Positions 1,142 to 26,179 of a stretch of DNA of 64,000 nucleotides are shown here, in pieces. The notes under the pieces are model-generated. The model searched no databases and was not told where the DNA came from. It was given only the letters and a program-made list of their open reading frames with translations. Made by a program: the position numbers and the translations under genes. Origin of the DNA: an uncultured virus (IMG/VR IMGVR_UViG_3300008107_000034) (lineage: Duplodnaviria; Heunggongvirae; Uroviricota; Caudoviricetes); the IMG/VR virus record IMGVR_UViG_3300008107_000034, one strand, 5' to 3'. The stretch's first letter is position 1. Each line of letters opens with the position of its first letter.

Positions 1142-1153
1142 TCAAAAAAGACT

Positions 1154-1552: not shown

Positions 1553-1588
1553 ATACTAAAAACTACCTAGTGTATACGAGGACGGTAG

Positions 1589-2575: not shown

Positions 2576-2579
2576 GATT

Positions 2580-4145: not shown

Positions 4146-4182
4146 GACATGAACATAAATAAAATAAAAAGTACCAATAGTT

Positions 4183-7100: not shown

Positions 7101-7185
7101 TCTTACGTTTGTTGTTACTAACTTAGCAGCTTCTGGATCTGCAGATGTTTTAGGTAGACTTTCTTGGACGGAGGCACAGGCATAA
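4183..7185 (+). CDS. Large virion structural protein (cyanophage-type)
   Basis: 1000 aa, beta-rich, repeated TxxPHGL/HN-type modules, RQTRRYFRYQSGKG motif; ATAAATA late-type motif upstream. Confidence 0.65.
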   Translation: MARKAILETGYTFTPSTNTVVIPRAIPRERLILITNVTTNTVIYNFSDNNLRATSYTIATSSAGVTTTTLVLNYSTASMSSTDKLQIIVDEYEEKFLPAEIVTDPVNKFRVSEPQALIDTDFEYGTQITKWENLAMINNRPFVFSSPVGIATINYISLPTNSRTVSVGLQAAAPGVGTAITVQDTYLSIANGNFIVETVTGSGNTIFTYTSRASNTTSINQLLDSNKTGIFSGSTYTNAAIGGTPTFGWTSGTAIPVTTTVPHGLAIGNEVAIVGSSQVNANGSYVVARINSNTQFTYYSTTAPAANPTGGRIFVRPQGQFLHRPFDGGVIFSSNANANFETAIRQTRRYFRYQSGKGIQVSSGTILKPNLQLDSLTSIGTTVTVQTKEQHNIQPGTVITVSGANESGYNGTFTINNITGYNTFQYTASTVPTATPASGSYNASVSSWYGCVNRLGIFDSQNGLFFEFDGQQLYAVRRSSTFQLSGKVTATSGINTISQTNASFPTYFSKQLDIGDFVVIRGQSYRVVDIASDTSMTISPSYRGASSDYVIMSKTTETRIPQSQWNIDKCDGTGPSGYNIDLTKMQMFYIDYSWYGAGFIRWGLRGSTGDVIYCHKLINNNVNAEAYMRSGNLPGRYESESRPPTTKISSNVAESDNYVGVASTAGFPPSGTILIRNASTYEYVNYAGIGTTSFTNVTRARSGNASLSLTGIITGQNVATATTTNLQVGQRVIGGFPEGTFISSVGVGTIVLSQGATSQNPTVIAAPMGTGIAGSSFTYSPADPVAVELAFPTFGPSISHWGTSVIMDGRFDDDKSLIFTFGQQTVTAVAAGASRALFSIRVAPSVDNGIAAAFGARELVNRLQLTLDSIGISIRGGTGNLLITAILNGTPSSTTNWTNAVGNVTGAVNSSLAQIANYAGGTTTVSGGETIAGFYVSSTDRLDLTGLRDLGNSILGGGGVTSREQIYPDGPDVLTFVVTNLAASGSADVLGRLSWTEAQA

Positions 7186-7188
7186 GAA

Positions 7189-8355: not shown

Positions 8356-8359
8356 TTTT

Positions 8360-11300
8360 ATGGCAGATACTCGTGGTGTTTTTAGTTTAAAACTTGCATA
8401 TAAGATAAAACGTCTTGATGAATGGGTTCCACTAAATGATGTTTGGTTATTGGCACCAATACCAAACACTGGATACTTTGGTGGTGGTGTTGTTCCTGGT
8501 CCAGCAGTACAATCAGCAATGGATAAGGTCACTTATTCATCAGATACCACAGCAGCAGTCCCTGGTGCCAGATTAAGTGTTGCTCGTTATACTCTTGCTG
8601 CTACAGGAAACTCAACATCAGGATATTTTGGAGGTGGAAGTTCCGTCGGCCCAAATTACTCAACACTCGATAAGGTAACTTATTCAACAGATACAACCAT
8701 AGCACTTCCTGGTTCAGGACTTTTAAGTGTTGCTCGTAGTGCTCTTGCTGCAACAGGAAACTCAACAGCAGGATACTTTGGTGGTGGTAGTACTCCTGCA
8801 CCAGCAACTTATTCAACAATGGATAAGGTTACTTATTCAACTGATACTACTGCTGCTGTTCCTGGTGCTGCATTAAGTATCCCTCGTCAAGGACTTACTG
8901 CAACAGGAAACTCAACTGCAGGATACTTTGGTGGTGGATTTTCTTCAATTTCAACAATGGATAAGGTCACTTATTCATCAGATACCACAGCAGCAGTTCC
9001 TGGCGCTGCTTTAAGTGGTGGTAGACGTGGTGCAGCATCTACAGGAAACTCAACTGCAGGGTATTTTGGTGGTGGTAGGCAACCTACTAATGTAGATTTA
9101 ACGACAATGGATAAGATTTCTTATTCAAATGATACTAGAACTACTCTTCCTTCTACTGGATCATTAAGTGCTGCTCGTAATTATTTAAGTGCAACAGGAA
9201 ACTCAACAGCAGGATACTTTGGTGGTGGCGGCGCTTCTCCAAGATCAACAATGGATAAATTAATTTATTCATCAGAAACTACCGCTGCAGTTTCTGGTGC
9301 CGCATTAAGTGCTGCTCGTTATGGACTTGCTGCATCAAGTGCCAGAGCAAATTCACTTCCAGAATTACCTCTCCAGTCAGGACCTTCACTAAGATTTTCT
9401 GATGCAACTCCATCACCAAACACTGGATACTTTGGTGGTGGTGGGTTTCCTGCAAGATCAACAATGGATAAGGTTACTTATTCATCAGACACCACTGCAG
9501 CAGTTCCTGGAGCAGCATTAAGTATTGCTCGTTATCTTCTTGCCGCAACAGGATCTTCAACCGCAGGGTACTTTGGTGGTGGTGGGTTTCCTATAAGATC
9601 AACAATGGATAAGGTCACTTATTCAACAGACACCACAGCAGCAGTTCCTGGAGCAGCATTAAGTGTTGCTCGTAGTGGTCTTGCTGCAACAGGTAACTCA
9701 ACATCAGGATACTTTGGTGGTGGTGGTGGTGGTGGTTCAAGATCAACAATGGATAAGGTCACTTATTCATCTGATACCACAGCAGCAGTTCCTGGTGCCG
9801 CATTAAGTGCGGCACGATATGGACTTTCTGCAACAGGAAACTCAACAGCAGGATACTTTGGTGGTGGTAGTGGTCCCAGATCAACAATGGATAAGGTCAC
9901 TTATGCATCAGACACCACAGCAGCAGTTCCTGGTGCCGCATTAAGTGCAGCACGTTATGCTCTTGCTGCAACAGGATCCTCAACTGCCGGATACTTTGGT
10001 GGTGGCAATACTCCTGGACCAGTATTATACTCAACAATGGATAAGGTCACTTATTCATCAGACACCACAGCAGCAGTTCCTGGTGCTGCATTAAGTGTTG
10101 CTAGAGATACTCTTGCTGCAACAGGATCCTCAACAGCAGGATACTTTGGTGGTGGTGCTCCTGGTCCATTATCAACAATGGATAAGGTCACTTATGCATC
10201 AGACATCACAGCAGCAGTTCCTGGTGCATCATTAAGTGTTGCTCGTTATGGTCTTGCCGCATCAAGCGCCAGAGCAAACGCACTACCTCAACCACCAGCA
10301 GCAACACCCACACCAGCAACTGTATTCGCATCATCACCAAACACTGGATACTTTGGTGGTGGTTCTCCTGGTCCAGTATCAACAATGGATAAGGTCACTT
10401 ATTCATCAGATACAACAGCACAAGTTCCTGGTGCATCATTAAGTGCTGCTCGTTATGGTGTTGCTGCAACAGGAAACTCAACCGCTGGATACTTTGGTGG
10501 TGGACTTGCTTTTCCTGCAATATATTCAACAATGGATAAGGTCACTTATTCATCAGACACAACAGCAGCAGTTCCTGGTGCCGCATTAAGTGTTGCTCGT
10601 GCTTATTTAGCAGCAACAGGTAACTCAATAGCAGGATATTATGGTGGTGGTCGTGTCTCACCAAATAATTATTCAATAATGGATAAGGTTACTTATTCGA
10701 CTGATACCACAGCAGCAGTTCCTGGTGCCGCATTTAATCCTGCTCGTGGTGAATTTTCTGCAACAGGAAATTCAGATGCAGGATACTTTGGTGGTGGTAC
10801 TTCTCCTGGTGGTACTTTATCAACAATGAATAAGTTGACATATTCAACGGATACTAATAGTGCTATTCCTAGTGCATCATTTAGCACTACTATTGGTGGA
10901 ACTGGATCTACTGGAAATGCAACTGATGGATATTTTGGTGGTGGTGCTCCTGGTCCATTATCAACAATGAATAAGGTCACTTATTCTACTGATACAAGAT
11001 CAACAGTTCCTGGTGCTGTATTAAGTGCTGTTCGATATTTTCTTGCTGCAACCGGGAACTCAAGTGCAGGATACTTTGGTGGTGGTAATCCTGGTCCAAG
11101 ATCAACAATGGATAAGGTCACTTATGCATCTGATACTACTGCTGCAGTCCCTGGTGCTGCATTAAGTGTTGCTCGTAATACTCTTTCTGCATCAAGCGCA
11201 AGAGCAAATGCATTACCACAAACCTTTGAGACTCCATCATTCGCACCTACTCCGAACACTGGTTACTTTGGTGGTGGTAGTCCTGTGGCATCGACAATGG

Positions 11301-12151
11301 ATAAGGTGACCTATGCATCAGATACAACAGCAGCAGTTCCTGGTGCCGCATTAAGTGTTGCTCGTAGATATGTTGCTGCAACAGGAAACTCAACAGCAGG
11401 ATACTTTGGTGGTGGCGAACCTGGTCCAGTATCAACAATGGATAAGGTCACTTATTCATCAGATACCACAGCAGCAGTCCCTGGTGCCAGATTAAGTGTT
11501 GCTCGTAATGGTCTTGCTGCAACAGGATCCTCAACAGCAGGATACTTTGGTGGTGGCACTGTACCTCCTAGTTTTTATTCAACAATGGATAAGGTCACTT
11601 ATTCATCAGATACCACAGCAGCAGTCCCTGGTGCCGCATTAAGTGCAGCACGACATGGTGTTGCTGCAACAGGAAACTCAACAGCAGGATACTTTGGTGG
11701 TGGTGCTTCCCCTAGTTTAGTATCAACAATGGATAAGGTTACTTATGCATCAGACACCACAGCAGCAGTTCCTGGTGCAAACTTAACTGTTGCTCGTTAT
11801 CTTCTTGCTGCAACAGGAAACTCAACCGCAGGATACTTTGGTGGTGGTTCACCTACATCATCAATAATGGATAAGGTCACTTATGCATCAGACACCACCG
11901 CCGCAGTTCCAGGTGCCGCATTAAGTGTTGCACGTTTTGCTTTTGCCGCAACAGGTAACTCAACAGCAGGATACTTTGGTGGTGGTTTTAGTGGTAGCAT
12001 AAGATCAACAATGGATAAGGTTACTTATGCATCAGATACCACAGCAGCAGTTCCTGGTGCAGCATTAAGTGTTGCTCGTAATGGTCTTGCAGCATCAAGT
12101 GCCAGAGCAAATGCACTTCCAGAAACAGCACCTGGACCATTTGTTGTATAA
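8360..12151 (+). CDS. Kelch-like multi-beta-propeller protein A (24 blades, 4 x 6)
   Basis: 24 GY(F/Y)GGG-x(n)-STMDKVTY-...-LSxAR repeats, grouped in sixes by ASSARANxLP Pro-rich linkers. Confidence 0.8.
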   Translation: MADTRGVFSLKLAYKIKRLDEWVPLNDVWLLAPIPNTGYFGGGVVPGPAVQSAMDKVTYSSDTTAAVPGARLSVARYTLAATGNSTSGYFGGGSSVGPNYSTLDKVTYSTDTTIALPGSGLLSVARSALAATGNSTAGYFGGGSTPAPATYSTMDKVTYSTDTTAAVPGAALSIPRQGLTATGNSTAGYFGGGFSSISTMDKVTYSSDTTAAVPGAALSGGRRGAASTGNSTAGYFGGGRQPTNVDLTTMDKISYSNDTRTTLPSTGSLSAARNYLSATGNSTAGYFGGGGASPRSTMDKLIYSSETTAAVSGAALSAARYGLAASSARANSLPELPLQSGPSLRFSDATPSPNTGYFGGGGFPARSTMDKVTYSSDTTAAVPGAALSIARYLLAATGSSTAGYFGGGGFPIRSTMDKVTYSTDTTAAVPGAALSVARSGLAATGNSTSGYFGGGGGGGSRSTMDKVTYSSDTTAAVPGAALSAARYGLSATGNSTAGYFGGGSGPRSTMDKVTYASDTTAAVPGAALSAARYALAATGSSTAGYFGGGNTPGPVLYSTMDKVTYSSDTTAAVPGAALSVARDTLAATGSSTAGYFGGGAPGPLSTMDKVTYASDITAAVPGASLSVARYGLAASSARANALPQPPAATPTPATVFASSPNTGYFGGGSPGPVSTMDKVTYSSDTTAQVPGASLSAARYGVAATGNSTAGYFGGGLAFPAIYSTMDKVTYSSDTTAAVPGAALSVARAYLAATGNSIAGYYGGGRVSPNNYSIMDKVTYSTDTTAAVPGAAFNPARGEFSATGNSDAGYFGGGTSPGGTLSTMNKLTYSTDTNSAIPSASFSTTIGGTGSTGNATDGYFGGGAPGPLSTMNKVTYSTDTRSTVPGAVLSAVRYFLAATGNSSAGYFGGGNPGPRSTMDKVTYASDTTAAVPGAALSVARNTLSASSARANALPQTFETPSFAPTPNTGYFGGGSPVASTMDKVTYASDTTAAVPGAALSVARRYVAATGNSTAGYFGGGEPGPVSTMDKVTYSSDTTAAVPGARLSVARNGLAATGSSTAGYFGGGTVPPSFYSTMDKVTYSSDTTAAVPGAALSAARHGVAATGNSTAGYFGGGASPSLVSTMDKVTYASDTTAAVPGANLTVARYLLAATGNSTAGYFGGGSPTSSIMDKVTYASDTTAAVPGAALSVARFAFAATGNSTAGYFGGGFSGSIRSTMDKVTYASDTTAAVPGAALSVARNGLAASSARANALPETAPGPFVV

Positions 12152-12179
12152 TTAGTGGTATAATAATCAAAAAGACTAT
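12146..12179 (+). promoter_or_regulatory. Extended -10 promoter-like junction (TGGTATAAT), copy 1
   Basis: gtataattagtggtataata overlaps the stop of propeller A; near-identical to the junctions after B and C. Confidence 0.55.
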
Positions 12180-12833
12180 ATGACTTTAATGATTGGTCTT
12201 CCCTGCATGGGAGGAATTGTGAGTGAAAAAACAACTCTTGGACTTTTCAATCTAGGGAAAGCACTAGTCCGTAACAATGTTCATCACGGACTCCTGACCC
12301 TGACAAACTCTTCTCTGATTACTCAGGCAAGATCTAAGGTTGCCAACTTTTTCATTAACAATACAGAACACGAGTATCTCTTTTTCCTGGATAGTGACAT
12401 TGGATTTAATCCAGAAGATGTGCTAAAATTAATGGCACATCAAGTTCCAATTGTTTCTGGTGCCTATCCAATGAAGATCATCCCAGAACGATACTGTGTA
12501 GATATCGTTCAACCAGAAGAACGACACGGAGATCTAGTCAAGATCAATGGAAATGGAATGGGATTTGTTCTGATTCATCGACAGGTGTTTCTAGACATCG
12601 CAAAACAATATCCAAATCTTAAATACATTCCATCAGACTATCATTCTGATACTCCACATACTCCAGCAGAGATGAATAATTCTTATCATTACTTTGCGGA
12701 GCATCAGAGTCAGAATGGATTTATGTCAGAGGATAAGAGTTTTTTCCACAGAGCACAATCAGTCGGTTATAGTATCTGGTTAGACACAACAATCAAACTG
12801 AATCATACTGGTTATCACATTTATCAAGGATAG
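12180..12833 (+). CDS. GT-A fold (family 2-like) glycosyltransferase
   Basis: LFFLDSDIGF DxD motif, GMGFVLIHRQVF, SEDKSFF, LNHTG. Confidence 0.75.
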   Translation: MTLMIGLPCMGGIVSEKTTLGLFNLGKALVRNNVHHGLLTLTNSSLITQARSKVANFFINNTEHEYLFFLDSDIGFNPEDVLKLMAHQVPIVSGAYPMKIIPERYCVDIVQPEERHGDLVKINGNGMGFVLIHRQVFLDIAKQYPNLKYIPSDYHSDTPHTPAEMNNSYHYFAEHQSQNGFMSEDKSFFHRAQSVGYSIWLDTTIKLNHTGYHIYQG

Positions 12834-12837
12834 TATT

Positions 12838-14541
12838 ATGGCAACTCAAATTACAGGTGGAACTGAAAAATGTTATATTCGATTGGCAGAACATTATCAG
12901 TTACCTGAAAATGTTTTTGTATCACACTTACCAGAAGAAATTAAAAAATCGAATCATCAATATAAAATTCTTTGGGCACATCATGCTTATGATCAACCAA
13001 TATTTTTAAATTTTGATCATACAATTGTAGATCATATTGTATCTCCTTCTCAATGGAATAAGGATCAGTTTGTAAAATACTTAAATGTTCCTGAACACAA
13101 AATTACAGTAATTCCAGTTGGAATCTATGATATTTTTTCACATTCAATTCAAAAAACAAAAACAATGATCTTTACTTCAATTCCTTATAAGGGTCTTGAA
13201 GTATTATCAAAAGTGATCCCATTGATCCAACAATTTCATCCAGATACAAAGTTTAAGATTTTTTCTTCGATGTCTTTGTATGGAATTTCAAATGATCCTT
13301 TTATTGAACTTTATGAACATATTAAAACATTACCAAATGTAGAATACTCCCGCGCAGTTACTCAGGAAGAATTAGTAAAACATTATCAAGAGTCTGCATT
13401 TTTTATTCATCCGAATATTTGGGAAGAAACATTTTGCCAATCAATGTGTGAGGCAATGCGTTGTGGTGCTTATCCAATCATCACAAATATTGGAGCACTC
13501 GCAGAGGTTGCTGGAGAGAAGAATGCAACTGTGGTTCCAATTGAAGGTGAGAATACATCCAAAGGTTGGAAGGTCACTGAGAATTTCCTGGTTAACTTTG
13601 CTAATGCCTGTTGCCTGGCATTGGATTATTATGAAAAGGAACCGAAGTTCTATCAAGAAGTTTCTAAGATCATTTCGGATTATGTGACCGAAAAATATGA
13701 CTGGAAAAAGATTGCAGAGCAATGGAAAAATCTGATTGATACGATACAAAATAAAAGTGTAGAGAAAAGACCAGTGTATTATTGTATGGTAAGCACTCAT
13801 GATACAGAGCAATACACTAACTTGGCAATTGATTCTTTCTTCAAAAATACTGATTTAAATGAACATGATAAATTTTTCTTAATTGATAATGACAATCAAT
13901 ATCAACTTTCAAATTATCAAAATAAAATCACTGTAATTTCAAATAATACTCCAAAAACTTTTGCGGAGAATATGAACTTTATCATGAAACTTGCTGCTGT
14001 TGATCGAGTTGACTTTTTTGGTTTAAGTAATGATATAGTTTTTACTGAAGACTGGAATCAAAACTTCACTGCTAGAAACAAAATTTTAGTTCCATTGTGT
14101 AACCAAAAATTACCTGGAGAATATGGGAGTTTGAAAATTAAATCAGTGATGGATATTGAAGATTATGATAATAAAGAACAGGAGTTAAATACATTTTCTA
14201 AGTTGATCGATTCAAAAACATTAAATCTTAATAAAACAATTATTGGATTTTATTGTTTTTATATTCCTTGTGAAGTTCTATTAAAAGTTGGATTTCTAGA
14301 TGAAAACTTTAAGAACGGTGCTGAAGATACGGACTATCGATTAAGAGCACAACAACTTGGATTTGATGTTGATATTAACTGCGAATCTTATCTACTTCAT
14401 TTTTGTGGTAAATCAACTTGGAGAGGATCTGAATCAAAAGAAGTAACCTTAGAGCGAGAAAAAAATTATCGAAATTATTTTGAACAGAAGTGGGGAAAAG
14501 AAATTGCTAATCAAGTTCTTGCTCAAAGTTGCGTCTCTTGA
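12838..14541 (+). CDS. Two-domain glycosyltransferase (GT-B/GT4-like + GT2-like)
   Basis: FTSIPYKGL and HPNIWEETFCQSMCEAMRCG (GT4 ExF-x5-E); C-terminal LSNDIVF and VGFLDENF...EDTDY (GT2). Confidence 0.8.
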   Translation: MATQITGGTEKCYIRLAEHYQLPENVFVSHLPEEIKKSNHQYKILWAHHAYDQPIFLNFDHTIVDHIVSPSQWNKDQFVKYLNVPEHKITVIPVGIYDIFSHSIQKTKTMIFTSIPYKGLEVLSKVIPLIQQFHPDTKFKIFSSMSLYGISNDPFIELYEHIKTLPNVEYSRAVTQEELVKHYQESAFFIHPNIWEETFCQSMCEAMRCGAYPIITNIGALAEVAGEKNATVVPIEGENTSKGWKVTENFLVNFANACCLALDYYEKEPKFYQEVSKIISDYVTEKYDWKKIAEQWKNLIDTIQNKSVEKRPVYYCMVSTHDTEQYTNLAIDSFFKNTDLNEHDKFFLIDNDNQYQLSNYQNKITVISNNTPKTFAENMNFIMKLAAVDRVDFFGLSNDIVFTEDWNQNFTARNKILVPLCNQKLPGEYGSLKIKSVMDIEDYDNKEQELNTFSKLIDSKTLNLNKTIIGFYCFYIPCEVLLKVGFLDENFKNGAEDTDYRLRAQQLGFDVDINCESYLLHFCGKSTWRGSESKEVTLEREKNYRNYFEQKWGKEIANQVLAQSCVS

Positions 14542-14589
14542 AATTACCCTATATAATATGATAAAATGTCTATACATTTGACAGAAGTT

Positions 14590-15441
14590 ATGACTAAAGA
14601 AAATTTTGCATTGACTTATACACCAATCAACGCACAAGAAGCAGTTCTGAATGATGATTACCTGGCACAGGCATCTCAGAATGTTTTTGCCTGGGAAGAA
14701 AGTGATAAGGAAATGGCACAGGGAAGAACCAACTTCCAAATTGAAAAGTTCATTGGTCTGAATACTCATAATATCTCTGTATCTTTCGAGCACATTCTAA
14801 AAGAACGTCGTATCATGGCATCGGGATACATGTTCAAACTCATCGAAATGAAAGAGAGAGTTCGTGAGTTTGAGTACAAGTGGAACGATAAGGATAAGAC
14901 TCAACCCATCATGTGGGAAACTGGTGGTCCTGGTGGTGGTAAGAAACTCTGCTGGTATGATCTTGAAGAACTTGAACTAACTCATTATCTGAAAGGTAGT
15001 GAGATGGAAATTCGTGATCGTCTACACCAGATGCAGCACCTGGATAAGATGCTTGCAAAACTGGTCGAACAGAACGGTGGTACTCCTCCTACCAGAGAGC
15101 AGTTCCTGGAAGAGAACCAAGAGTATTGGGATACTCGTCTTGCAGAACAGGCACTGGACGATCTGATGGCAGCACAGACTGGTATCTCTGGTGCAAACCT
15201 ACAGGCAATGCGTCGTGCATCTGCTCCTGCAATGGTTGATCCAAGAAACAATTTCAAGGAAGGTTATCTGCCAATGAATAAACTTCTTGATCATCAGGGA
15301 AGAATGGAGTTTATCAATGATCTTCAGGGTAAAGTGATGAGAGGTTATGAGAAGATCACTGGTGCTGATCTTGGTTATGGTGCCGCAATCAAACCTGCAG
15401 AAGAACAGAAAAAGATTTCTGGAACCTATACCGAAGAATGA
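14590..15441 (+). CDS. Hypothetical helical/coiled-coil protein
   Basis: ~283-aa ORF; start probably ATG 14590 (GAAG upstream; ATG 14566 overlaps a -10-like element). Confidence 0.7.
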   Translation: MTKENFALTYTPINAQEAVLNDDYLAQASQNVFAWEESDKEMAQGRTNFQIEKFIGLNTHNISVSFEHILKERRIMASGYMFKLIEMKERVREFEYKWNDKDKTQPIMWETGGPGGGKKLCWYDLEELELTHYLKGSEMEIRDRLHQMQHLDKMLAKLVEQNGGTPPTREQFLEENQEYWDTRLAEQALDDLMAAQTGISGANLQAMRRASAPAMVDPRNNFKEGYLPMNKLLDHQGRMEFINDLQGKVMRGYEKITGADLGYGAAIKPAEEQKKISGTYTEE

Positions 15442-15944
15442 CCGAACAGATCATTATCGTTGATGACCTTTATGATATTGCACACCAGTATCATAAAGGT
15501 TTTTTTGAAAACCAGTGTGTGATTACTGATGAGACTGTAGGAAAAATCTCACAGATCATTGGGAATCCGATTGAAATTATATCAGCATCCAATCAAACTG
15601 GAAGTCTTCCTGGTGTAGTTGCACACCTTGAGTGTGATTGGATCGCTCTGATTTATTTGACTCTACCTCTTGAGTCATTTGGTGAGTTTGGAGTCAAGTT
15701 TTACTCTCACCTTGCAACGGGATTAGAAACATTTCCAACAAAGGAAGAGATGATTCAATATCAGATTGATGAGAGTCAACTGAGTCAAGTCTTCTCTTCT
15801 GATCTGAGTTTGTGGAAAGAGTACGGTAACATTCCTGCAAGGTATAATCGAATGGTTTTGTTCCGCGGAAATCGTTGGCATTCTTATGAGAGTAAACTAA
15901 ATAACTCTATGCTTTATCAGAAGATAATAATAAGAAATGCCTGA
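15438..15944 (+). CDS. Divergent 2OG-Fe(II) oxygenase-like (DUF6445-like) protein
   Basis: IIIVDD start, HLE..W.ALIYLT, YNRMVLFRGNRWHS; paralogous to 19802-20416. Confidence 0.6.
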   Translation: MTEQIIIVDDLYDIAHQYHKGFFENQCVITDETVGKISQIIGNPIEIISASNQTGSLPGVVAHLECDWIALIYLTLPLESFGEFGVKFYSHLATGLETFPTKEEMIQYQIDESQLSQVFSSDLSLWKEYGNIPARYNRMVLFRGNRWHSYESKLNNSMLYQKIIIRNA

Positions 15945-18900: not shown

Positions 18901-19776
18901 GATAAGGTTACTTATGCATCAGATACAACAGCAGCAGTTCCTGGTGCAGCATTAAATGGTGCTCGTTATAATCATTGTGCAACCGGAAATTCAACAACAG
19001 CATATTTTTCTGGAGGTCCCCAGCCAGGGTCTAGTTCGGATTATTCTTTAATGGATAAAATTTATTATATAACAGATACAAAAACAATTATATCTGGATC
19101 CAGTATAACCAGAGATCGTAGAAATATTGCTGCAGTAAGTTCTCCAGCAGCAGGATACTTTGGTGGCGGTGGTTTTCCCGCTGCACCTGGACCATATTCA
19201 AATGCAAGTAAACTTACATATTCTACTGAAATTATTTCGCAAATTCCTTCCTTAAGTTCTCCTCGTTATGGTGCTAGTGCAACAGGAAACTCAACTGCAG
19301 GATACTTTGGTGGTGGAAATAACTTTACTCCACTTCCAGGTGCAAGAACAACAGTAGATAAGATCACTTATTCAAATGATTTTATATCAGCACTTCCCAC
19401 TGCAGGATTTTTAAGTGTTGGTAGTAATGTTGCCGCAACAGGAAACTCAACAGCAGGTTACTTTGGTGGTGGTTTTGTTAATCCCAATGCATATTCAACA
19501 ATGGATAAATTAACTTACTCCACTGATACAAGATCAACAATTCCTGGTGCCTCATTAAGTGCTGCTCGTGATAGTGTTGTTGCAACATCATCTTTAGTGG
19601 CAGGATACTTTGGTGGTGGTGGTTCAAGATCAACGATGGATAAGGTCACTTATTCCATTGATACAACAGCAGCAGTTCCTGGTGCATTTTTAAGTGTTGC
19701 TCGTAATAATTTTGCAGCATCAAGTGCAACTAGTAATGCATTACCAGGTAATTCACAAATATCATTTAACGTATAA
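15937..19776 (+). CDS. Kelch-like multi-beta-propeller protein B (24 blades)
   Basis: Same repeat and 4 x 6 grouping as A; N-terminus MPDTRGVFGL. Confidence 0.8.
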   Translation: MPDTRGVFGLFDVVDNSLAGDYVPLTDIWVSPSPLQSVASNTGYFGGGFAPGAYSTVDKLNYSTDITAVVPGAALSAARYQLAATGNSTAGYFGGGFAPGAYSTVDKLNYSTDITAVVPGAFLSVARRALAATGNSTAGYFGGGLFPGVPGTYSTMDKLTYSTDTTAAVPGAALNVARFGFGATGSTTAGYFGGGFEGSPRSTMDKVTYVYDTCSLIPGANLTVARYSLAATGSSTAGYFGGGLSPSNVSTMDKLTYSSDTTALAPTSANLSTVRSSLAATGNSTAGYFGGGNSPGVSSTMDKLTFATENTSAVATAALSIPRNTLAALSSRANALPGVVSTLPSSASSKFIDGTLSPQTGYFAGGASSATVDKLNYSTDLTAAIPSAFFAVARAQQGATGNTTAGYFGGGFDYSISNFVSSVQIITYAADTNAVAPTTAFFSSINYGLSATGNSTAGYFGGGSPGTRMSKLSYNSNTMSDLPGAALSISRSKLAATGNSTAGYFGGGFNNISRMDKVTYSTDTTAAVPGASLSAARAALAATGNSTVGYFGGGYYFTGSAFNYHSTMDKVTYSTDTTAAVPGAALSAVRYGLAATGSSTAGYFGGGGTSGPVSSTMDKVTYSSDTTAAVPGAALSVARYDLAASSARANALFQPPATTVTPTIFNASVPNTGYFGGGGPSPSTSSSTMDKVTYSSDTTVAVPGASLSVARRGSAATGNSISGYFGGGIVSPNLYSTMDKVTYASDTTAVVPGAALSAARKYLAATGSSSAGYFGGGNPVASTMDKLTYSSDTTAALPGASLSARSGLAATGNSTSGYFGGGFPGPLTTMEKVTYSTDTTSAVPGAALSIARYSLAATGSSTAGYFGGGVPASSTMDKVTYSTDTRSTVPGAALSATRYSLSATGSSSAGYFGCGFSGAIVATMDKVTYASDTTAAVPGAALSAARTYLGAASARANALPQPTFQTGTIFSNFGYFGGGIASFVYSTMDKVTYASDTTAAVPGAALNGARYNHCATGNSTTAYFSGGPQPGSSSDYSLMDKIYYITDTKTIISGSSITRDRRNIAAVSSPAAGYFGGGGFPAAPGPYSNASKLTYSTEIISQIPSLSSPRYGASATGNSTAGYFGGGNNFTPLPGARTTVDKITYSNDFISALPTAGFLSVGSNVAATGNSTAGYFGGGFVNPNAYSTMDKLTYSTDTRSTIPGASLSAARDSVVATSSLVAGYFGGGGSRSTMDKVTYSIDTTAAVPGAFLSVARNNFAASSATSNALPGNSQISFNV

Positions 19777-19801
19777 TTAGTGTTATAATATTCAAAAAAC
19801 T
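19761..19801 (+). promoter_or_regulatory. Extended -10 promoter-like junction (TGTTATAAT), copy 2
   Basis: 38-nt exact match to 25060-25097. Confidence 0.55.
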
Positions 19802-20416
19802 ATGAGACGTAATATTATTGTCATTGATGATTTCTATTCAAACCCTGATGAGATTCGACAGTTTGCTCTGAATGAATCATATCCAGAACCAACGGATGGG
19901 TACACTTATCCTGGAAAGAACTCAAGAGACGGTTACTACCCAGAATCACTACATCAAAAGTTTGAGTCAGTTCTGAATCGTAAACTGACTCCTGCACAAC
20001 CAAACGGATATTTTCGTTTGTCATTAGAGACGGATACCTACCGTCAGGATGTTCATGTCGATCCTGTCTGGGAGTTTGGTGCCGTCTGTTATCTCAATCC
20101 ACCAGAACAAGTCATTAATGAGGGTGGCACATCATTCTGGGTCCATAATAAAACTCATACAGAAACCTGTCCACGCACAGATGATGAAGCAAAGTATCAT
20201 GGATACTCATCGGCAAAAGAAGCATGGTGGACAACAGTTTATGGTGAAGGTTTAGATCGTTCTAAATGGACTCGATACTTGCTTTCACCCATGAAGTATA
20301 ATAGAATAGTCATATTCAAAACAAATCTGTGGCACTCTCATAATTATAACTTCGGAACCAATCTACAAAATGGTCGTCTAGTTCAATTATTTTTCTTTAA
20401 TCCTACTGAATGGTGA
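19802..20416 (+). CDS. 2OG-Fe(II) oxygenase (DUF6445-like)
   Basis: IIVIDDFYSNPD, HVD facial motif, GGTSFW, YNRIVIF..LWHS, RLVQLFFF. Confidence 0.75.
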   Translation: MRRNIIVIDDFYSNPDEIRQFALNESYPEPTDGYTYPGKNSRDGYYPESLHQKFESVLNRKLTPAQPNGYFRLSLETDTYRQDVHVDPVWEFGAVCYLNPPEQVINEGGTSFWVHNKTHTETCPRTDDEAKYHGYSSAKEAWWTTVYGEGLDRSKWTRYLLSPMKYNRIVIFKTNLWHSHNYNFGTNLQNGRLVQLFFFNPTEW

Positions 20417-20417
20417 T

Positions 20418-21236
20418 ATGAATAAAACTTATTATTTTATGGCAGGTCTTCCACGATCTGGCAGCACTCTATTGAAAAGTATTTTGAATCAGAATCCAGA
20501 ACTTCATACAGAACCAGTGAGTCCTGTCATGGAACTGATGTATTGGAACGATCATTACTTTTCTGATAGTGAGCAGTATCTTGGGTATCCAAAACCAAAA
20601 TCGGCACATCGGATTGTTTCCACGATCATTGAAGACTACTACTTTGATGTGGAGAAACCTATCATCATCGATCACTGTAGGGCATGGAGTAATAATATTG
20701 AACGCATCAAAACTTATATCACACCAGAACCAAAGATTATCTGTCCTGTTCGAAACATCACAGAGATTCTGACTTCCTTTATTACCATGATCCGACGCAA
20801 TTCAGATCAGGTTTCTTTTATTGATCAGCACCTGATTGAAAAAGGATATCCAATCACGGATGACAATCGGTGTCACTATCTGATGAGTAAAGAAGGTATT
20901 GTGGAACAGGCACTCTGGGCACAATCACAGGCATTCATTCGTGGTGATCAAAAGCATCTGTTAATGGTTGAGTATGATGATTTGATTGAAAAACCCAATG
21001 AAACCATGAATCGAATCTATGAGTTTCTGGGAGTAGATTCTTATACTCATAACTTTGATCACATTGAGAATACACATCGTGAGATTGATGATCAGTGGTA
21101 TCTCAAAGACATGCATCATGTTCGTGGTAAATTGGAAAAAGTGTCCTCAAAACCAGAAAGTATTTTGAGTGATGAGATTCTAAATAGGTATAGTAACTTG
21201 GAATACTGGAAGTATTCTAATCATAAGTATTATTAA
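20418..21236 (+). CDS. Sulfotransferase
   Basis: GLPRSGSTLL 5'-phosphosulfate-binding loop, KIICPVR, VEYDDLIEKP...IYEFLG. Confidence 0.85.
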   Translation: MNKTYYFMAGLPRSGSTLLKSILNQNPELHTEPVSPVMELMYWNDHYFSDSEQYLGYPKPKSAHRIVSTIIEDYYFDVEKPIIIDHCRAWSNNIERIKTYITPEPKIICPVRNITEILTSFITMIRRNSDQVSFIDQHLIEKGYPITDDNRCHYLMSKEGIVEQALWAQSQAFIRGDQKHLLMVEYDDLIEKPNETMNRIYEFLGVDSYTHNFDHIENTHREIDDQWYLKDMHHVRGKLEKVSSKPESILSDEILNRYSNLEYWKYSNHKYY

Positions 21237-21238
21237 TA

Positions 21239-24200
21239 ATGCCAAACACCAGAGGAGTATTTACATTAACATATATTAGAGAAGAAAAAATACCTTTTAC
21301 TAATGGATGGATTTCATTATCTGATGTTTGGATATCTCCTTCTCCATTAGCACTGCCACTTGCAGGATACTTTGGTGGTGGTTTTCTTTCTCCTGCTCCA
21401 AGATCAACGATGGATAAGGTTACTTATGCATCTGATACAACAGCAGCAGTTCCTGGTGCAAACTTAAGTGTTGCTCGTAATAGTTTAGGAGCAACGGGAT
21501 CTTCTACTGCTGGATATTTTGCGGGTGGAAATTCCTCCGGACCAATTCACTCAACAACTGATAAGGTCACTTATTCGACTGATACAAGATCAACAATTCC
21601 TGGTGCTTCATTAAGTTCTCCTCGTTATGGATCTGGAGCAACAGGAAACTCAACCGCAGGATACTTTGGTGGTGGATCTGAACCAGCATATGTGACAACA
21701 ATGGATAAGATCACTTATTCAACTGATACTAGATCAACAGTTCCTGGTGCCGCATTAAGTGCTGCTCGTTATTATCTTGCTGCAACAGGATCTTCATCCG
21801 CTGGATACTTTGGTGGTGGTACTCAAAATGTAGTTCCTCAACCAATATATTCGATAATGGATAAGTTGACTTATTCATCTGATACAGCAGCAGCAGTTCC
21901 TGGTGCATTTTTAAGTGATGCTCGTTTTAGTCTTGCTGCAACGGGATCTTCAACCGCAGGATATTTTGGTGGTGGAACATCTTCTGGTGGTGCAAGATCA
22001 ATAATCGATAAGGTTACTTATGCGTCTGATACCACAGCAGTAATTCCTGGCACATTTTTAAGTGCTGATCGTTATAATCTTGCCGCAACAGGAAATTCAA
22101 CAGCAGGATACTTTGGTGGTGGAAATAGTTCTCCAGGATTTCCCATACCAGTAAGATCGACGATGGATAAGGTATCATATTCTACTGACACACGAACAAC
22201 AGTTGCTGGTGCCTCATTAAGTGTTGCTCGGGTTAATCTTGCAGCATCAAGTGCATTTTTCTTTGCTCCATCAGACCCACCAACAAGATTTACTGATGCA
22301 ACACCAGCACCAGACACTGGATACTTTGGTGGTGGATCTGGTGGTGGATTTCATACAACAATGGATAAGGTTACTTATGCGTCTGATACTACAGCAGCAG
22401 TTCCTGGTGCATCATTAAGTGCTGCACGTTATGGTTTGGCAGCAACAGGTAACTCAACAGCAGGATATTTTGGTGGTGGTTATTTTACAGACATAATGGA
22501 TAAGGTTACTTATGCATCTGATACTACAGTAGCAGTTCCTGGTGCCGCATTAAGTGTTGGTCGTTCTTATCTTGCCGCAACAGGAAACTCAACAGCAGGA
22601 TACTTTGGTGGTGGTTTAGGACTTACATTGATGGATAAGGTCACTTATTCAACCGACACAACAGCAGCAGTTCCTGGAGCATCCTTAAGTGTTGCTCGTT
22701 ACTATCTTGCCGCAACAGGAAACTCAACATCAGGATACTTTGGTGGTGGTAATCCTGGTCCAAGATCAACAATGGATAAGGTCACTTATTCATCAGACAC
22801 CACTGCAGCAGTTCCTGGTGCCGCATTAAGTGTTCCTGCTCGTTATGGTCTTGCCGCAACAGGAAACTCAACAGCAGGATACTTTGGTGGTGGTCAAACA
22901 TTCTCAACAATGGATAAGGTCACTTATTCATCAGACACCACTGCAGCAGTTCCTGGTGCCGCATTAAGTGCAGCACGTGGTTATCTTGGTGCAACAGGTA
23001 ATTCAACAGCAGGATACTTTGGTGGTGGTCCTGGATTCTTAGAAATGGATAAGGTCACTTATTCATCAGATACCACAGCAGCAGTTCCTGGTGCAAACTT
23101 AAGTTATCCCCGATTTGGTCTTGCTGCATCAAGCGCAAGAGCAAATGCACTACCACAACCACCAGCACTCACTGCAACACCAGGAACAGTTAATGTAACA
23201 GCACCAAACACTGGGTACTTTGGTGGTGGTTCTGCTCCTGGTGTAAGATCAACAATGGATAAGGTCACTTATTCAACTGATACAACAGTAGCAGCTCCTG
23301 GAGCAGCATTAAGTGCTGCTCGTTATCGTCTGGCAGCAACAGGAAACTCAACCGCAGGATACTTTGGTGGTGGTCAGGTTCCTGGTGTCGGAAATTATTC
23401 AACAATGGATAAGGTCACTTATTCATCAGACACCACAGCAGCAGTTCCATTGGCTAAACTATCTAGTGCTCGTGAAATATCAAGTGCAACAGGATCTTCA
23501 ACAGCAGGATACTTTGGTGGTGGATATGGATTTCCCTCACAAATATCAACAATGGATAAGGTAACTTATTCATCTGATACCACAGCAGCACTTCCTACTG
23601 CTGGATTTTTGAGTGTAGGTCGCACTTACGGATCTGCAACAGGAAACTCAACCGCAGGATACTTTGGTGGTGGTTATGGTACTAGTACAGAACTAAGATC
23701 GACAATGGATAAGTTAACTTATTCTACTGATACTACAGCACAAGTTCCTGGTGCCTCATTAAGTGCAGCACGTTATCATCTGGCAGCAACAGGAAACTCA
23801 ACCGCAGGTTACTTTGGTGGTGGCACTCCACCCAGTCCGGGATTGACTGGTGTTGATCGATCAACAATGGATAAGGTCACTTATGCGACTGATACTACAG
23901 CAGCAGTTCCTGGTGCATTTTTGAGCACCAATCGTTGTAAAGTTGCTGCAACAGGAAACTCAAATGCAGGATATTTTGGTGGTGGAGCGTCTTATGGTCT
24001 TCCTCTTTTTTCAAGAATAGATAAGGTCACTTATTCTAATGATACAACAGCAGCAGTTCCTAGTGCATCATTAAGTGTTGCTCGTAGTGATCTTGCTGCA
24101 TCAAGTGCCAGAGCAAATGCATTGCCACAACCAACCTTTGAGACCCCATCATTCGCACCGACTCCGAACACTGGATACTTTGGTGGTGGTTTTAATCCTG

Positions 24201-25075
24201 GTGGTACAAGATCAACAATGGATAAAGTTACTTATTCAACAGATACAACAGCAACAGTTACTGGTGCTGCATTAAGTGCAGCACGTTATGGACTTGCTGC
24301 AACAGGATCCTTAACCGCAGGATACTTTGGTGGTGGTTTTCCTGGTCCCCAGTCAACAATGGATAAGGTTACTTATTCCACTGATACAACAGCAGCAGTT
24401 CCTGGTGCAGCATTAAGTGTTGGTCGTTTTAGTTTTGCTGCAACAGGATCTTCAACTGCAGGATACTTCGGTGGTGGAGTGGGATCAGCATTCCCTATAC
24501 CCAATTACTCAACAATGGATAAGGTTACTTATGCATCTGACACCACAGCAGCAGTTCCTGGTGCCGCATTAAGTGCTGCTCGTCGTTATCTTGCCGCAAC
24601 AGGAAACTCAACTGCTGGATACTTTGGTGGTGGTCTTCCTACATCATCATTAATGGATAAGGTCACTTATTCATCAGACACAACAGCAGCAGTTCCTGGT
24701 GCAGCATTAAGTGTTGCTCGTTCTCAACTTGCTGCAACAGGTAATCAATCTTCTGGATACTTTGGTGGTGGTTCTCCTGCACCATCGACAATGGATAAGG
24801 TCACTTATTCATCAGACACCACAGCAGCAGTTCCTGGTGCCGCATTAAGTGGAACACGTTATCGTCTGGCAGCATCAGGAAACTCAACTGCTGGTTATTT
24901 TGGTGGTGGTGGTCCTGGTACATTCTCAACAATGGATAAGGTCACTTATTCATCAGATACAACAGCAGCAGTTCCTGGTGCAGCATTAAGTGTTGCTCGT
25001 AGGTCTCTTGCAGCATCAAGCGCAAGAGCAAACGCATTGCCACAACCGACATACCCTGCATCATTTAACGTATAA
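21239..25075 (+). CDS. Kelch-like multi-beta-propeller protein C (24 blades)
   Basis: Same repeat and grouping; N-terminus MPNTRGVFTL. Confidence 0.8.
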   Translation: MPNTRGVFTLTYIREEKIPFTNGWISLSDVWISPSPLALPLAGYFGGGFLSPAPRSTMDKVTYASDTTAAVPGANLSVARNSLGATGSSTAGYFAGGNSSGPIHSTTDKVTYSTDTRSTIPGASLSSPRYGSGATGNSTAGYFGGGSEPAYVTTMDKITYSTDTRSTVPGAALSAARYYLAATGSSSAGYFGGGTQNVVPQPIYSIMDKLTYSSDTAAAVPGAFLSDARFSLAATGSSTAGYFGGGTSSGGARSIIDKVTYASDTTAVIPGTFLSADRYNLAATGNSTAGYFGGGNSSPGFPIPVRSTMDKVSYSTDTRTTVAGASLSVARVNLAASSAFFFAPSDPPTRFTDATPAPDTGYFGGGSGGGFHTTMDKVTYASDTTAAVPGASLSAARYGLAATGNSTAGYFGGGYFTDIMDKVTYASDTTVAVPGAALSVGRSYLAATGNSTAGYFGGGLGLTLMDKVTYSTDTTAAVPGASLSVARYYLAATGNSTSGYFGGGNPGPRSTMDKVTYSSDTTAAVPGAALSVPARYGLAATGNSTAGYFGGGQTFSTMDKVTYSSDTTAAVPGAALSAARGYLGATGNSTAGYFGGGPGFLEMDKVTYSSDTTAAVPGANLSYPRFGLAASSARANALPQPPALTATPGTVNVTAPNTGYFGGGSAPGVRSTMDKVTYSTDTTVAAPGAALSAARYRLAATGNSTAGYFGGGQVPGVGNYSTMDKVTYSSDTTAAVPLAKLSSAREISSATGSSTAGYFGGGYGFPSQISTMDKVTYSSDTTAALPTAGFLSVGRTYGSATGNSTAGYFGGGYGTSTELRSTMDKLTYSTDTTAQVPGASLSAARYHLAATGNSTAGYFGGGTPPSPGLTGVDRSTMDKVTYATDTTAAVPGAFLSTNRCKVAATGNSNAGYFGGGASYGLPLFSRIDKVTYSNDTTAAVPSASLSVARSDLAASSARANALPQPTFETPSFAPTPNTGYFGGGFNPGGTRSTMDKVTYSTDTTATVTGAALSAARYGLAATGSLTAGYFGGGFPGPQSTMDKVTYSTDTTAAVPGAALSVGRFSFAATGSSTAGYFGGGVGSAFPIPNYSTMDKVTYASDTTAAVPGAALSAARRYLAATGNSTAGYFGGGLPTSSLMDKVTYSSDTTAAVPGAALSVARSQLAATGNQSSGYFGGGSPAPSTMDKVTYSSDTTAAVPGAALSGTRYRLAASGNSTAGYFGGGGPGTFSTMDKVTYSSDTTAAVPGAALSVARRSLAASSARANALPQPTYPASFNV

Positions 25076-25100
25076 TTAGTGTTATAATATTCAAAAACTT
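25060..25100 (+). promoter_or_regulatory. Extended -10 promoter-like junction, copy 3
   Basis: atcatttaacgtataattagtgttataatattcaaaaa, identical to 19761-19798. Confidence 0.55.
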
Positions 25101-25766
25101 ATGATTGAAAATCCTTTATCTTATGTTTTGATCAAACCAAATGTGATCAATGAACATGGTGTTCAAGAAATAGTTCAACATATCAAGTCTTCAACAGCAA
25201 CTGATCTAGCAGTCTTTGATCCACATAAGTCAAATGAGACTGGTGGTAAGGAATGGAGAGTCGATAAGACCATTCGTGACACACAACATATTGAGATGGG
25301 CCCGATTCAACCAAAGATCATTGAGTTGATGCACAATGTCGTCAAAGAAGTTGTCAATCCTTTTTATGGTGTAGAAATCTGCGAAAGTGAAGTTCCTCAG
25401 ATTTTGTCCTATGGAATTGGAGGTCACTACTGCCCACATATTGATGGTGAATCTCTTTGGCAGACTCCTGATGGTGAACTGATTTGGAAGAAATCAACCG
25501 AACGAGATCTATCAATGGTCTTTTATCTGAACGATGACTTTGAAGGTGGCGATTTTATATTTCCAGATCTCAAGATTCGTGTGAGACCAGAACCAGGAAT
25601 GATGGTTTGCTTCCCATCTAATCATCATTATAAGCATGGAGTCGAACCAGTCACAAAAGGAAAAAGATATTCGATTGTTTGCTGGGCAAAGGTCAAAGGG
25701 TTTCCTACAATGGATGATCAAAACAAGGAACTCTCTCAAAAGTATGGGATTGCCATAAATAATTAA
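25101..25766 (+). CDS. Prolyl-4-hydroxylase-like 2OG-Fe(II) oxygenase
   Basis: YGIGGHYCPHID, YLNDDFEGG, HGVEPVTKGKRYSIVCW. Confidence 0.85.
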   Translation: MIENPLSYVLIKPNVINEHGVQEIVQHIKSSTATDLAVFDPHKSNETGGKEWRVDKTIRDTQHIEMGPIQPKIIELMHNVVKEVVNPFYGVEICESEVPQILSYGIGGHYCPHIDGESLWQTPDGELIWKKSTERDLSMVFYLNDDFEGGDFIFPDLKIRVRPEPGMMVCFPSNHHYKHGVEPVTKGKRYSIVCWAKVKGFPTMDDQNKELSQKYGIAINN

Positions 25767-25783
25767 AGATTTTTCAAATTACA

Positions 25784-26179
25784 ATGCAATATATCAAACA
25801 TTATTATGTTGATGATAACAATAATTCTTTTTGTTGTGAACTTTCAGAACCAAATTATAAGAGACATCCTTATAAAGAATATGCTGGACTGGACGTGAAA
25901 GTTTGGTTAAAAGATTCCGAAGGTGTAGATGTTTGTCTTTCTGAAGTTCCAGACTCAACTGCAGTAACGACGATTGTAAGTCCTTGTGGAAAAAATAGTG
26001 TTCAAGTTTTGACTGAAGAAGAATATAACTCAGTTGCAAATTTTTACTTGAAGTCTATATCACTTCTTTTAGAATCTGAAACAGCAAGAAGTTCTGGTGA
26101 TGAAGAAACTGCATTGGAAAAACAGACCGCGGCCACAGAAAAACTTTCTGAAGCATCTGCTGCTCTTCATGCTCTTTAA
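25784..26179 (+). CDS. Hypothetical protein
   Basis: 131-aa ORF preceded by an ATAAATA late-type motif. Confidence 0.65.
   Translation: MQYIKHYYVDDNNNSFCCELSEPNYKRHPYKEYAGLDVKVWLKDSEGVDVCLSEVPDSTAVTTIVSPCGKNSVQVLTEEEYNSVANFYLKSISLLLESETARSSGDEETALEKQTAATEKLSEASAALHAL

Follow-up and report, generated by a model that had tools for sequence, protein, structure and literature searches.

Kelch-type multi-propeller proteins encoded among tailoring-enzyme genes behind a tail-fibre gene of T4-like cyanophages: a possible self-decorating section of the host-recognition cluster

We describe a gene island in an uncultured tailed virus (Caudoviricetes; IMG/VR record IMGVR_UViG_3300008107_000034) in which three genes for very large Kelch-type propeller proteins – here A, B and C – alternate with genes for glycosyltransferases (GTs), a sulfotransferase and oxygenase-like proteins. 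The stretch of DNA analysed (the window, 64,000 nucleotides (nt) long) is part of an 85-kb IMG/VR virus contig with an estimated completeness of 36%. Since the window encodes homologs of PhoH, ThyX, gp59, DUF1825 and gp32, and since it shares 77.5% nucleotide identity with the Synechococcus phage S-SKS1 across phoH to gp32, we take it to come from a T4-like cyanophage. All genes of the island lie on the + strand and are densely packed; the fibre/propeller junctions are gaps of 2–4 nt or an overlap of 8 nt. Directly upstream of A are a tail protein (phrog_5939), fibre-like proteins and a virion structural protein (phrog_5838, E 0), just as an earlier sequence-only reading of this DNA had placed the island against fibre genes; the far border is the nrdC/thyX/phoH/gp59/gp32 module.

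The propeller proteins A (1263 amino acids (aa); 8360..12151), B (1279 aa; 15937..19776) and C (1278 aa; 21239..25075) are 57–68% identical in pairwise comparison. Each consists of an N-terminal adaptor of 35 aa and, behind it, a series of ~48-aa repeats. In its strict form the motif GYFGGG is found 23 times in A, 21 times in B and 23 times in C; in the degenerate form [GA]Y[FY][GASC][GC]G it marks exactly 24 repeats per protein, 72 in total. Spacing between repeats is 45–54 aa inside a group and 64–74 aa over the three linkers, which divides each protein into four groups of six. Motif counts and spacing thus agree with the sequence-only reading, which had described three paralogs of ~1,270 aa with 24 blades each in a 4 x 6 arrangement. 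Among IMG/VR homologs that are complete from N- to C-terminus the number of groups is two, three, four or five, always with six repeats each. The same reading had called the loops and linkers rich in Pro, Ser and Thr, and composition bears this out: blade loops contain 13.8% Pro, 20.7% Ser and 14.8% Thr, with Pro present in 56 of the 72, and the linkers between groups are rich in Pro, Thr and Ala (Pro 16.8%).

Evidence that each group of six repeats forms a Kelch propeller came from profiles and from structure prediction. No Pfam family, the Kelch models among them, matched the whole proteins at E 0.01 or two of the blocks at E 10, and the PHROGs match of the propellers is to a family lacking a function (phrog_19111); some of their database homologs do carry PF24681. 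A profile built from 54 paralogous or closely related six-blade blocks matched the designed Kelch protein SAKe6BR (7q58) with E 8.1e-8, across profile positions 23-283 and all six blades, and KLHL12 with E 0.01. An AlphaFold2 model made from this paralog-only alignment was discarded because of its low confidence (predicted local distance difference test (pLDDT) 45.1). Addition of 64 more distant database homologs raised the alignment to 91 sequences, and with it the second block of A (residues 352-643) was predicted as a six-bladed propeller of 24 strands with pLDDT 94.7 and a predicted template-modelling (TM) score of 0.93. Foldseek matches of this model are Kelch domains: SAKe6BE (TM 0.86), KLHL17 (0.85), Keap1 (0.84–0.86) and KLHL12 (0.83), with KLHL3 also among the matches; against 7on7, 6hrl, 3zgc and 6v7o the TM range is 0.83–0.86 with root-mean-square deviations of 1.8–2.7 Å. 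A search of the ESM Atlas with the block returned unnamed viral clusters and low-share Kelch labels only. Because the remaining 11 blocks of the window share 59–81% identity with the modelled block, A, B and C can fairly be taken to contain twelve propellers, and the Kelch assignment first proposed from the repeat periodicity is upheld by the predicted structure.

The Kelch repeat is a unit of about 44–56 aa with a Gly doublet and conserved Tyr, Trp and Arg residues. Aligned across the 72 blades, the Gly doublet, the Tyr (column 28) and the Arg (column 47) are near-invariant, while the Trp position holds Ala or Thr. The blades thus resemble those of Keap1, KLHL3, KLHL12, KLHL17 and SAKe6 in repeat length, in the Gly doublet, Tyr and Arg, in the six four-stranded blades and in having one variable face; unlike them they lack the Trp, stand as four propellers in tandem behind a phage adaptor, and are joined to no BTB or BACK domain. 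The scaffold is near-invariant from blade to blade, and entropy over the 72 blades peaks at two sites only: the loop that follows GGG, 5–14 residues long, and the two residues that follow Ala-Arg. The model gives the strand order LAAT, GYFG, loop, MDKVTY, TTAAV, PGAALSxAR-xx, by which the variable sites are the B-C and D-A loops. Given the antiparallel topology of a four-stranded blade, both are predicted to sit on one face of the propeller, which we take to be the canonical Kelch ligand face, the one used by Keap1 to bind Nrf2. The strand map also disposed of a candidate target for sulfation, the invariant Tyr of DKVTYSSD, which would be the conserved core Tyr of Kelch strand C.

Variability extends to comparisons between genomes. 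Related contig L020 has genes for the sulfotransferase, DUF6445 and P4H proteins (see below) that are 97–98% identical to those of the window, against 61–63% for the propeller protein encoded between them, which has five propellers rather than four. On these identities the propellers appear to change far faster than the enzyme genes beside them. Blades 1 and 2 of B (16063-16350) are a recent tandem duplicate, with 132 of 144 nt the same and the first 92 nt identical; the changes between them are concentrated at the D-A loop, one of the two variable sites. Recent gene conversion among A, B and C was considered and rejected, no tract longer than ~130 nt being above 90% identity between genes. 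The propeller genes have a G+C content of 41–45% (intervals 8001-12000 and 16001-25000) versus 33–38% in their neighbours, a difference due to their Gly/Ala-rich repeat composition and hence no sign of foreign origin.

Two further features may link the propellers to the fibre that precedes them. The fibre gene (388 aa; 7189..8355) encodes fibre-like N-terminal repeats and ends in a conserved domain of 227 aa (residues 162-388; 7672-8352), which we call the fibre-end domain and which shares 57% identity with the closing part of a 2491-aa fibre of phage AG-345-L05. The fibres that bear this domain range in length from 272 aa to 1684 aa or more, some being truncated by a contig end. In the phage collection it is found in five records representing four phages (AG-345-L05, AG-345-O18, S-SKS1 and AG-345-E08), in each of which a propeller gene is adjacent or one gene away. 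Its profile has no match in the PDB (best E 2.1). The second feature is the propeller adaptor, about 35 residues of the form M-x-D-T-R-G-V-F-x-L ... W-x-P-L-x-D-V-W. A hidden Markov model built from 20 Kelch-type N-termini recognized the six propeller proteins of the window and AG-345-L05 with E 1e-13 to 1e-17 and nothing else among 691 open reading frames (ORFs); a search for the adaptor alone among shorter proteins gave three matches and no new domain partner.

The genes between and behind the propellers encode a set of putative tailoring enzymes. After A comes a GT-A-like glycosyltransferase of 217 aa (12180..12833): its Pfam GT2 match lies below the cut-off (E 0.045; 14.1 bits against 23.3), it matches a PHROGs glycosyltransferase family with E 1.4e-7, and its family profile, in which D71 and D73 are invariant, matches the viral GT-A protein STIV A197 (2c0n) with E 2.6e-5. 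The next protein, of 567 aa (12838..14541), has a GT4 half (residues 26-305; Glycos_transf_1, 3.1e-13, 50.1 bits against a cut-off of 26.4) and a weak GT2-like C-terminal part (449-548), for which TIGR01556 scores 7.4e-5 and 22 bits, far below its cut-off of 200. No family match was found for the 291-aa protein that follows (14566..15441); it can be tied to glycosyl transfer because its homologs elsewhere are fused to a GT4 domain. In these fusions of 591 aa (L013:3703-5475, L014:7487-9259 and L031:1443-3215) the GT4 domain is N-terminal and the homolog of the 291-aa protein C-terminal, and the fusion takes the place of the GT4+GT2 protein of the window.

Two proteins belong to DUF6445 (PF20043; cut-off 24): one of 168 aa (15438..15944; 31.9 bits), whose gene runs 8 nt into B, and one of 204 aa (19802..20416; 61.5 bits) after B. 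In the longer form H85, D87, H178 and R192 are invariant in 14 sequences, a ligand set like that of 2-oxoglutarate (2OG) oxygenases. In the shorter form Asn stands in place of the His in 4 of 15 sequences, the spacing is H-x3-D, and all 15 lack Arg at the aligned position. The 168-aa protein, which the sequence-only reading had labelled oxygenase-like, therefore carries DUF6445 without the canonical metal and 2OG ligands, and may not be an active oxygenase. No link between DUF6445 and P4H family profiles was seen with hhalign (probability 0.1), PDB searches with DUF6445, profile included, found no match, and a search for longer proteins containing the 168-aa domain found none, which counts for little.

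The 204-aa gene is followed by that of a sulfotransferase (272 aa; 20418..21236; family PF13469/PF00685; Sulfotransfer_3, 1.8e-17, 64.8 bits against a cut-off of 27) with an N-terminal GLPRSGST loop, which is presumably the loop that binds 3'-phosphoadenosine-5'-phosphosulfate (PAPS). Its matches to TPST2 are weak and confined to the level of the PAPS loop, and its sole named NCBIfam match, to the carbohydrate sulfotransferase NoeE, likewise covers the N-terminal loop only. Behind C stands a 2OG-Fe(II) oxygenase of 221 aa (25101..25766; 2OG-FeII_Oxy_3, 1.6e-17, 64.7 bits against a cut-off of 27), here P4H221 for its likeness to prolyl 4-hydroxylases (P4Hs). H113, D115, H179 and R189 – the HxD...H motif plus a basic 2OG residue – are invariant in 26 sequences, and over the C-terminal half it matches prolyl 3-hydroxylase 1 (1.1e-8) and the P4H of B. 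anthracis (3.6e-7) in the PDB; by similarity we class it as a prolyl-hydroxylase-like oxygenase. A weak Tet_JBP match (E 0.0037) lies beneath the stronger 2OG-FeII_Oxy_3 match. The last gene of the island encodes a protein of 131 aa (u131; 25784..26179) with no family or ESM Atlas match, and follows P4H221 directly in 30 of the 37 cases in which the next gene is visible. Thus the enzyme calls made earlier largely stand: those of a GT4 glycosyltransferase, a P4H-like 2OG oxygenase and a sulfotransferase are upheld, the 217-aa protein first called GT2-like is GT-A-like, and the GT2 matches are weak or sub-threshold.

The organisation of the island was then compared across relatives by two surveys, one with the propellers as query (47 annotated loci, the window and some near-duplicates included) and one, made independently of the propeller query, with the fibre-end domain. 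In some 57 distinct related IMG/VR contigs the same genes always lie in one island that runs from the fibre-end domain to the P4H221-u131 pair. The gene after a propeller, visible in 71 cases, is an island enzyme in 60, another propeller in nine and something else in two. All seven loci that show both island edges carry GT, sulfotransferase and P4H cassettes, and the enzyme set lies downstream of the fibre-end domain in all 18 contigs whose downstream genes can be seen. Co-occurrence of propellers and enzymes at the level of the island, anticipated by the sequence-only reading, is therefore robust. Its rule of strict alternation is not: full alternation is found in just four of the seven complete islands, with tandem propellers and contiguous enzymes in L013, L043, L045/L076 and L055, and in L014, L051 and AG-345-L05 the GT and sulfotransferase cassettes stand in the opposite order to that of the window. 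The isolate S-SKS1 also carries a Kelch-type island. Its reference record (L002/L003, NC_020851.1) is linearised within a propeller gene, with a partial coding sequence at position 1; the repeat region contains unannotated gaps and short 'hypothetical' fragments, and the P4H-like gene is split into two ORFs. These oddities, at the record ends and at 201782-203159, point to assembly or annotation trouble in the repeats.

How enzymes and propellers are grouped within the island is suggested by a short element. Four nt past the stop codon of each propeller gene – at 12156..12164 after A, 19781..19789 after B and 25080..25088 after C – stands the extended -10-like sequence TGNTATAAT, 12–16 nt ahead of the next ATG. 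In related contigs it follows 33 of 51 distinct propeller 3' ends. Between adjacent propeller genes it is missing, with the late-type AATAAATA in its place in L043 and L055; the late-type motif NATAAATA, which stands upstream of structural genes and likewise between propellers, has no direct occurrence ahead of A, B or C. Because TGNTATAAT follows propellers and is missing where one propeller gene directly follows another, the likely unit of expression would be this promoter-like element, the enzymes behind it and the propeller downstream of them.

A grouping of enzymes with the downstream propeller is also what gene neighbourhoods and adaptor types suggest. The 168-aa DUF6445 gene immediately precedes a propeller gene in all 21 loci scored, and in ten further contigs does so in four of the six visible cases. 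In a tree of the adaptors (39 N-termini, 48 columns), and with label shuffles that ignore relatedness, adaptor type changes 11 times when mapped against the upstream neighbour, compared with a shuffle mean of 17.1 and no shuffle in 1000 that reaches 11. Against the downstream neighbour the figures are 14 changes, a mean of 15.3 and 212 of 1000 shuffles: no tracking. Seven of the nine propellers that follow a sulfotransferase, that of C with its 'EEKIP' adaptor subtype being one such position in the window, form a single clade (Shimodaira-Hasegawa-like approximate likelihood ratio test 87), regardless of what comes after them. That adaptor type may follow the upstream enzyme cassette is a lead; it reverses the direction assumed earlier, in which each propeller was paired with the enzymes behind it.

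A related toolkit accompanies a different propeller family. Phage AG-345-E08 has three RCC1 propellers (387, 407 and 392 aa), assigned by Pfam alone, behind a fibre with a homologous end domain (33%, E 1e-20). Its island encodes five proteins with 2OG-FeII Pfam domains, one of them 33% identical to P4H221, together with a DUF6445 protein, a sulfotransferase (22% identical to that of the window), a GT25 and a TPR protein; a Cys-rich 145-aa protein, an NDP-sugar epimerase, a cytidylyltransferase and a PfkB kinase (RfaE-like) are also present. In the Synechococcus phage isolate S-SRM01 the propellers are annotated 'regulator of chromosome condensation', the sulfotransferase is 36% identical to that of the window, and 2OG oxygenase and glycosyltransferase genes are present by annotation; a match to the fibre-end domain was not found in S-SRM01. 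Its RCC1 proteins have no sequence similarity to the Kelch blocks. The adaptor motif was not counted as present on RCC1 heads, its only match being to one AG-345-E08 protein at E 0.28, with none in S-SRM01. RCC1-type islands lie at 854-19256 of MH319737.1 (L037) and at 51-14382 of NC_070963.1 (L035). These islands are like that of the window in their three propeller genes behind a fibre and their interleaved 2OG oxygenases, sulfotransferase and GTs, and unlike it in their single seven-blade RCC1 domains and greater number of sugar-nucleotide genes. That the toolkit persists while the propeller family is swapped suggests that fibre, heads and enzymes are functionally linked.

Elsewhere in the window, HNH/NUMOD3 homing-endonuclease-like genes (28168-28758 and 30272-30919) lie on both sides of thyX (29420-30172). 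Among the fibre genes upstream of the island, a 521-aa protein (2580-4145) contains two similar internal segments, SVSTLNEGSSVTFTI and SVAEGSSVTFSI, and has a weak Ig_3 match (E 2e-4, under the cut-off); it may be an Ig-like decorated fibre or adhesin.

What, then, is the island for? The reading that we place foremost, if tentatively and as a little short of probable, is that the propellers are virion appendages which use their variable face to bind the host surface, with the adaptor joining them to the fibre end, and that the enzymes tailor the phage's own appendage proteins. The island would then be the distal, fast-evolving section of the host-recognition gene cluster of a cyanomyovirus. 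The propeller proteins would be carried by the fibre encoded immediately before them, the one with the conserved end domain, and the face formed by the B-C and D-A loops would contact structures of the host surface. The conserved tailoring set – two GTs with their accessory protein, an intact and a degenerate DUF6445 protein, a sulfotransferase, and a P4H-like oxygenase with its small partner – would hydroxylate, glycosylate and sulfate the propellers, in their Pro-rich loops and linkers, or else the fibre. There is precedent for such proteins in virions: CBB_552, a Kelch propeller protein of Pectobacterium phage CBB, was detected in virions by mass spectrometry (PMC5259590), and BFVD neighbours of our block model include proteins of the phiKZ-like phages Noxifer, PhiPA3 and Phabio annotated as 'virion structural protein'.

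A bolder form of the same idea is doubtful, yet worth stating. Here the enzymes of each unit would coat their own propeller: B would receive a glycan, C a hydroxyl and a sulfate group, A nothing or something else. The degenerate DUF6445 protein, whose gene almost always immediately precedes that of a propeller, would be an oxygenase that has lost catalysis and become a dedicated chaperone holding the substrate, and Kelch and RCC1 heads, served by one and the same enzyme toolkit, would be interchangeable on one fibre-end socket. Receptor-binding surfaces would on this account be diversified twice, by loop sequence and by post-translational chemistry.

Several observations weigh against tailoring of the phage's own appendages. 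The Kelch-type loci all belong to one phage clade and one syntenic site, so that co-occurrence within them is not independent evidence. Gene order in the islands is shuffled, alternation failing in three of the seven complete ones. The pairing test is a weak one, with shuffles blind to relatedness and a tree of 48 columns; sulfotransferase cassettes stand without an 'EEKIP'-type propeller in L013, L043 and L055, and in L098 and L101 the 168-aa DUF6445 gene is followed by an enzyme gene instead of a propeller. The cassettes carry the sigma-70-type TGNTATAAT and not the late-type NATAAATA, and may be expressed at a different time. Since the enzymes persist alongside RCC1 heads, Kelch-specific motifs cannot be what they require, and they might equally act on the fibre or on the host. 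No fusion of enzyme and propeller was found, which says little. Finally, the sequence-only reading had named homologs without these enzymes as a finding that would speak against it: in Burkholderia phage BcepSaruman the 9 kb around a distant Kelch homolog contain none of them, whereas every related contig that shows both island edges has them.

The main alternative is one which we consider possible though rather unlikely: that the propellers do bind the host on the virion, but that the enzymes remodel lipopolysaccharide (LPS) or other surface glycans of the host, as a block to superinfection or an aid to release of progeny, and are found in the island only because the locus is a hypervariable 'host recognition cluster'. 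Zaragoza-Solas et al. (2020) read the GTs of that cluster as modifiers of the O-chain (PMC7029224), and cyanophage GTs are read likewise in PMC12801897. The GT25 (an LPS family), sugar epimerase, cytidylyltransferase and PfkB kinase of the AG-345-E08 island suit such a role, as do the sigma-70-like -10 elements that the cassettes have to themselves, the shuffled order of enzymes relative to propellers, and a sulfotransferase whose only named NCBIfam match, NoeE, acts on carbohydrate. Yet the closest solved relatives of P4H221 act on prolines in proteins and not on sugars; the gene junctions are tight or overlapping, with the 168-aa DUF6445 gene adjoining the propeller wherever the loci of the first survey allowed it to be scored; and adaptor type appears to follow the upstream cassette. 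That the enzymes are more conserved than the propellers is what would be expected of a fixed chemistry applied to a changing scaffold, and is still compatible with a host target.

It is improbable, in our estimation, that the propellers are not virion parts at all, being instead intracellular Kelch-type adaptors for host proteins or released decoys, with enzymes that serve this or an unrelated role. Cellular and poxviral Kelch domains, which figure among the PDB and BFVD neighbours, are intracellular protein-binding modules, the BcepSaruman homolog sits among non-structural genes, and NATAAATA does not directly precede A, B or C. Set against this are the shared strand and near-contiguity of propeller and fibre genes, the fact that the conserved adaptor and the fibre-end domain travel together with the propellers, the late-type AATAAATA before the next propeller at the L043 and L055 junctions, and the proven presence of the Kelch propeller CBB_552 in the virion of phage CBB. 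Least probable of all is that the oxygenases, sulfotransferase and GTs act on a small molecule or on phage DNA and adjoin the propellers incidentally, for, even though Iyer et al. 2010 propose secondary-metabolite roles for tandem cyanophage dioxygenases (PMC2938197), Sullivan et al. 2010 discuss 2OG oxygenases in DNA repair or 2OG consumption (PMC3037559) and P4H221 has its weak Tet_JBP match, the family scan revealed no nonribosomal peptide synthetase, polyketide synthase, halogenase or nucleotide-modifying partner in the island, the P4H-like protein is nearest to protein hydroxylases, and the set accompanies fibre-end and propeller genes in both the Kelch and the RCC1 family.

The closest precedents bear on different parts of the tailoring of phage appendages as we propose it. 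Kelch-like propellers encoded by phages are known from the virion proteins of jumbo phages (CBB_552 and, by annotation, those of PhiPA3, Noxifer and Phabio); unlike A, B and C these are single propellers of 13–20% identity to ours, for which an adaptor, a fibre-end partner and tailoring enzymes are unreported. For glycosylation of a phage's own proteins the precedent is mycobacterial: Freeman et al. 2023 reportedly showed by experiment that GTs encoded beside structural genes of mycobacteriophages glycosylate the virion proteins of those same phages. That system differs from the present one in its targets, capsid and tail tube, and in having no oxygenase, sulfotransferase or propellers.

The host recognition cluster of pelagi- and cyanomyophages, which lies between VrlC and gp14, is likewise a hypervariable island of the structural region with tail fibres and GTs; the portion of its description available to us mentions no Kelch multi-propellers, sulfotransferase, DUF6445 or P4H cassettes (PMC7029224). 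The island of the window shares its fibres, GTs and high variability, and the VrlC and gp14 borders were not identified there. Nearest in concept are the 'hydroxylate then sulfate' operons predicted by Iyer et al. 2010 to act on co-encoded tail-collar or collagen-like proteins, in which 2OG dioxygenases and sulfotransferases stand beside a phage-tail-like or repetitive Gly-rich putative substrate (PMC2938197). Those operons are bacterial and often include a PAPS synthetase, while the island of the window adds glycosyltransferases; collagen, tail-collar and PAPS-synthetase families are absent from the 28 window proteins scanned.

The literature search, which left supplements outside its range, returned no paper that describes these multi-propeller proteins or their link to enzymes, and DUF6445 appears in none. 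The sequence-only reading knew of no description of strict alternation as a system; the general idea is precedented by the operons of Iyer et al. 2010. The components and the general idea, in short, have forerunners in Kelch propellers, the host recognition cluster, the Iyer operons and mycobacteriophage glycosylation. New here are the pairing with the upstream cassette, the promoter-like element after propellers, the degenerate DUF6445 protein, the fibre-end survey, and the fibre-end domain held in common with AG-345-E08.

Much of the ocean's primary production, and of the turnover of that production, is driven by marine picocyanobacteria and their T4-like phages, and host recognition by these phages is poorly known. 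The island is widespread, present in the related IMG/VR contigs and in the isolates S-SKS1 and, in RCC1 form, S-SRM01, and it couples the most variable proteins of the genome with conserved enzymes of protein or glycan tailoring. If the phage does decorate its own appendages, this would be, as far as we know, the first combined hydroxylation, glycosylation and sulfation of bacteriophage receptor-binding proteins, and would add a chemical layer to the evolution of host range; if instead the enzymes act on the host, adsorption specificity would be coupled to superinfection exclusion in one mobile unit. Whichever reading holds, a Kelch scaffold that hardly changes except at two sites in each blade amounts to a natural library of binding proteins.

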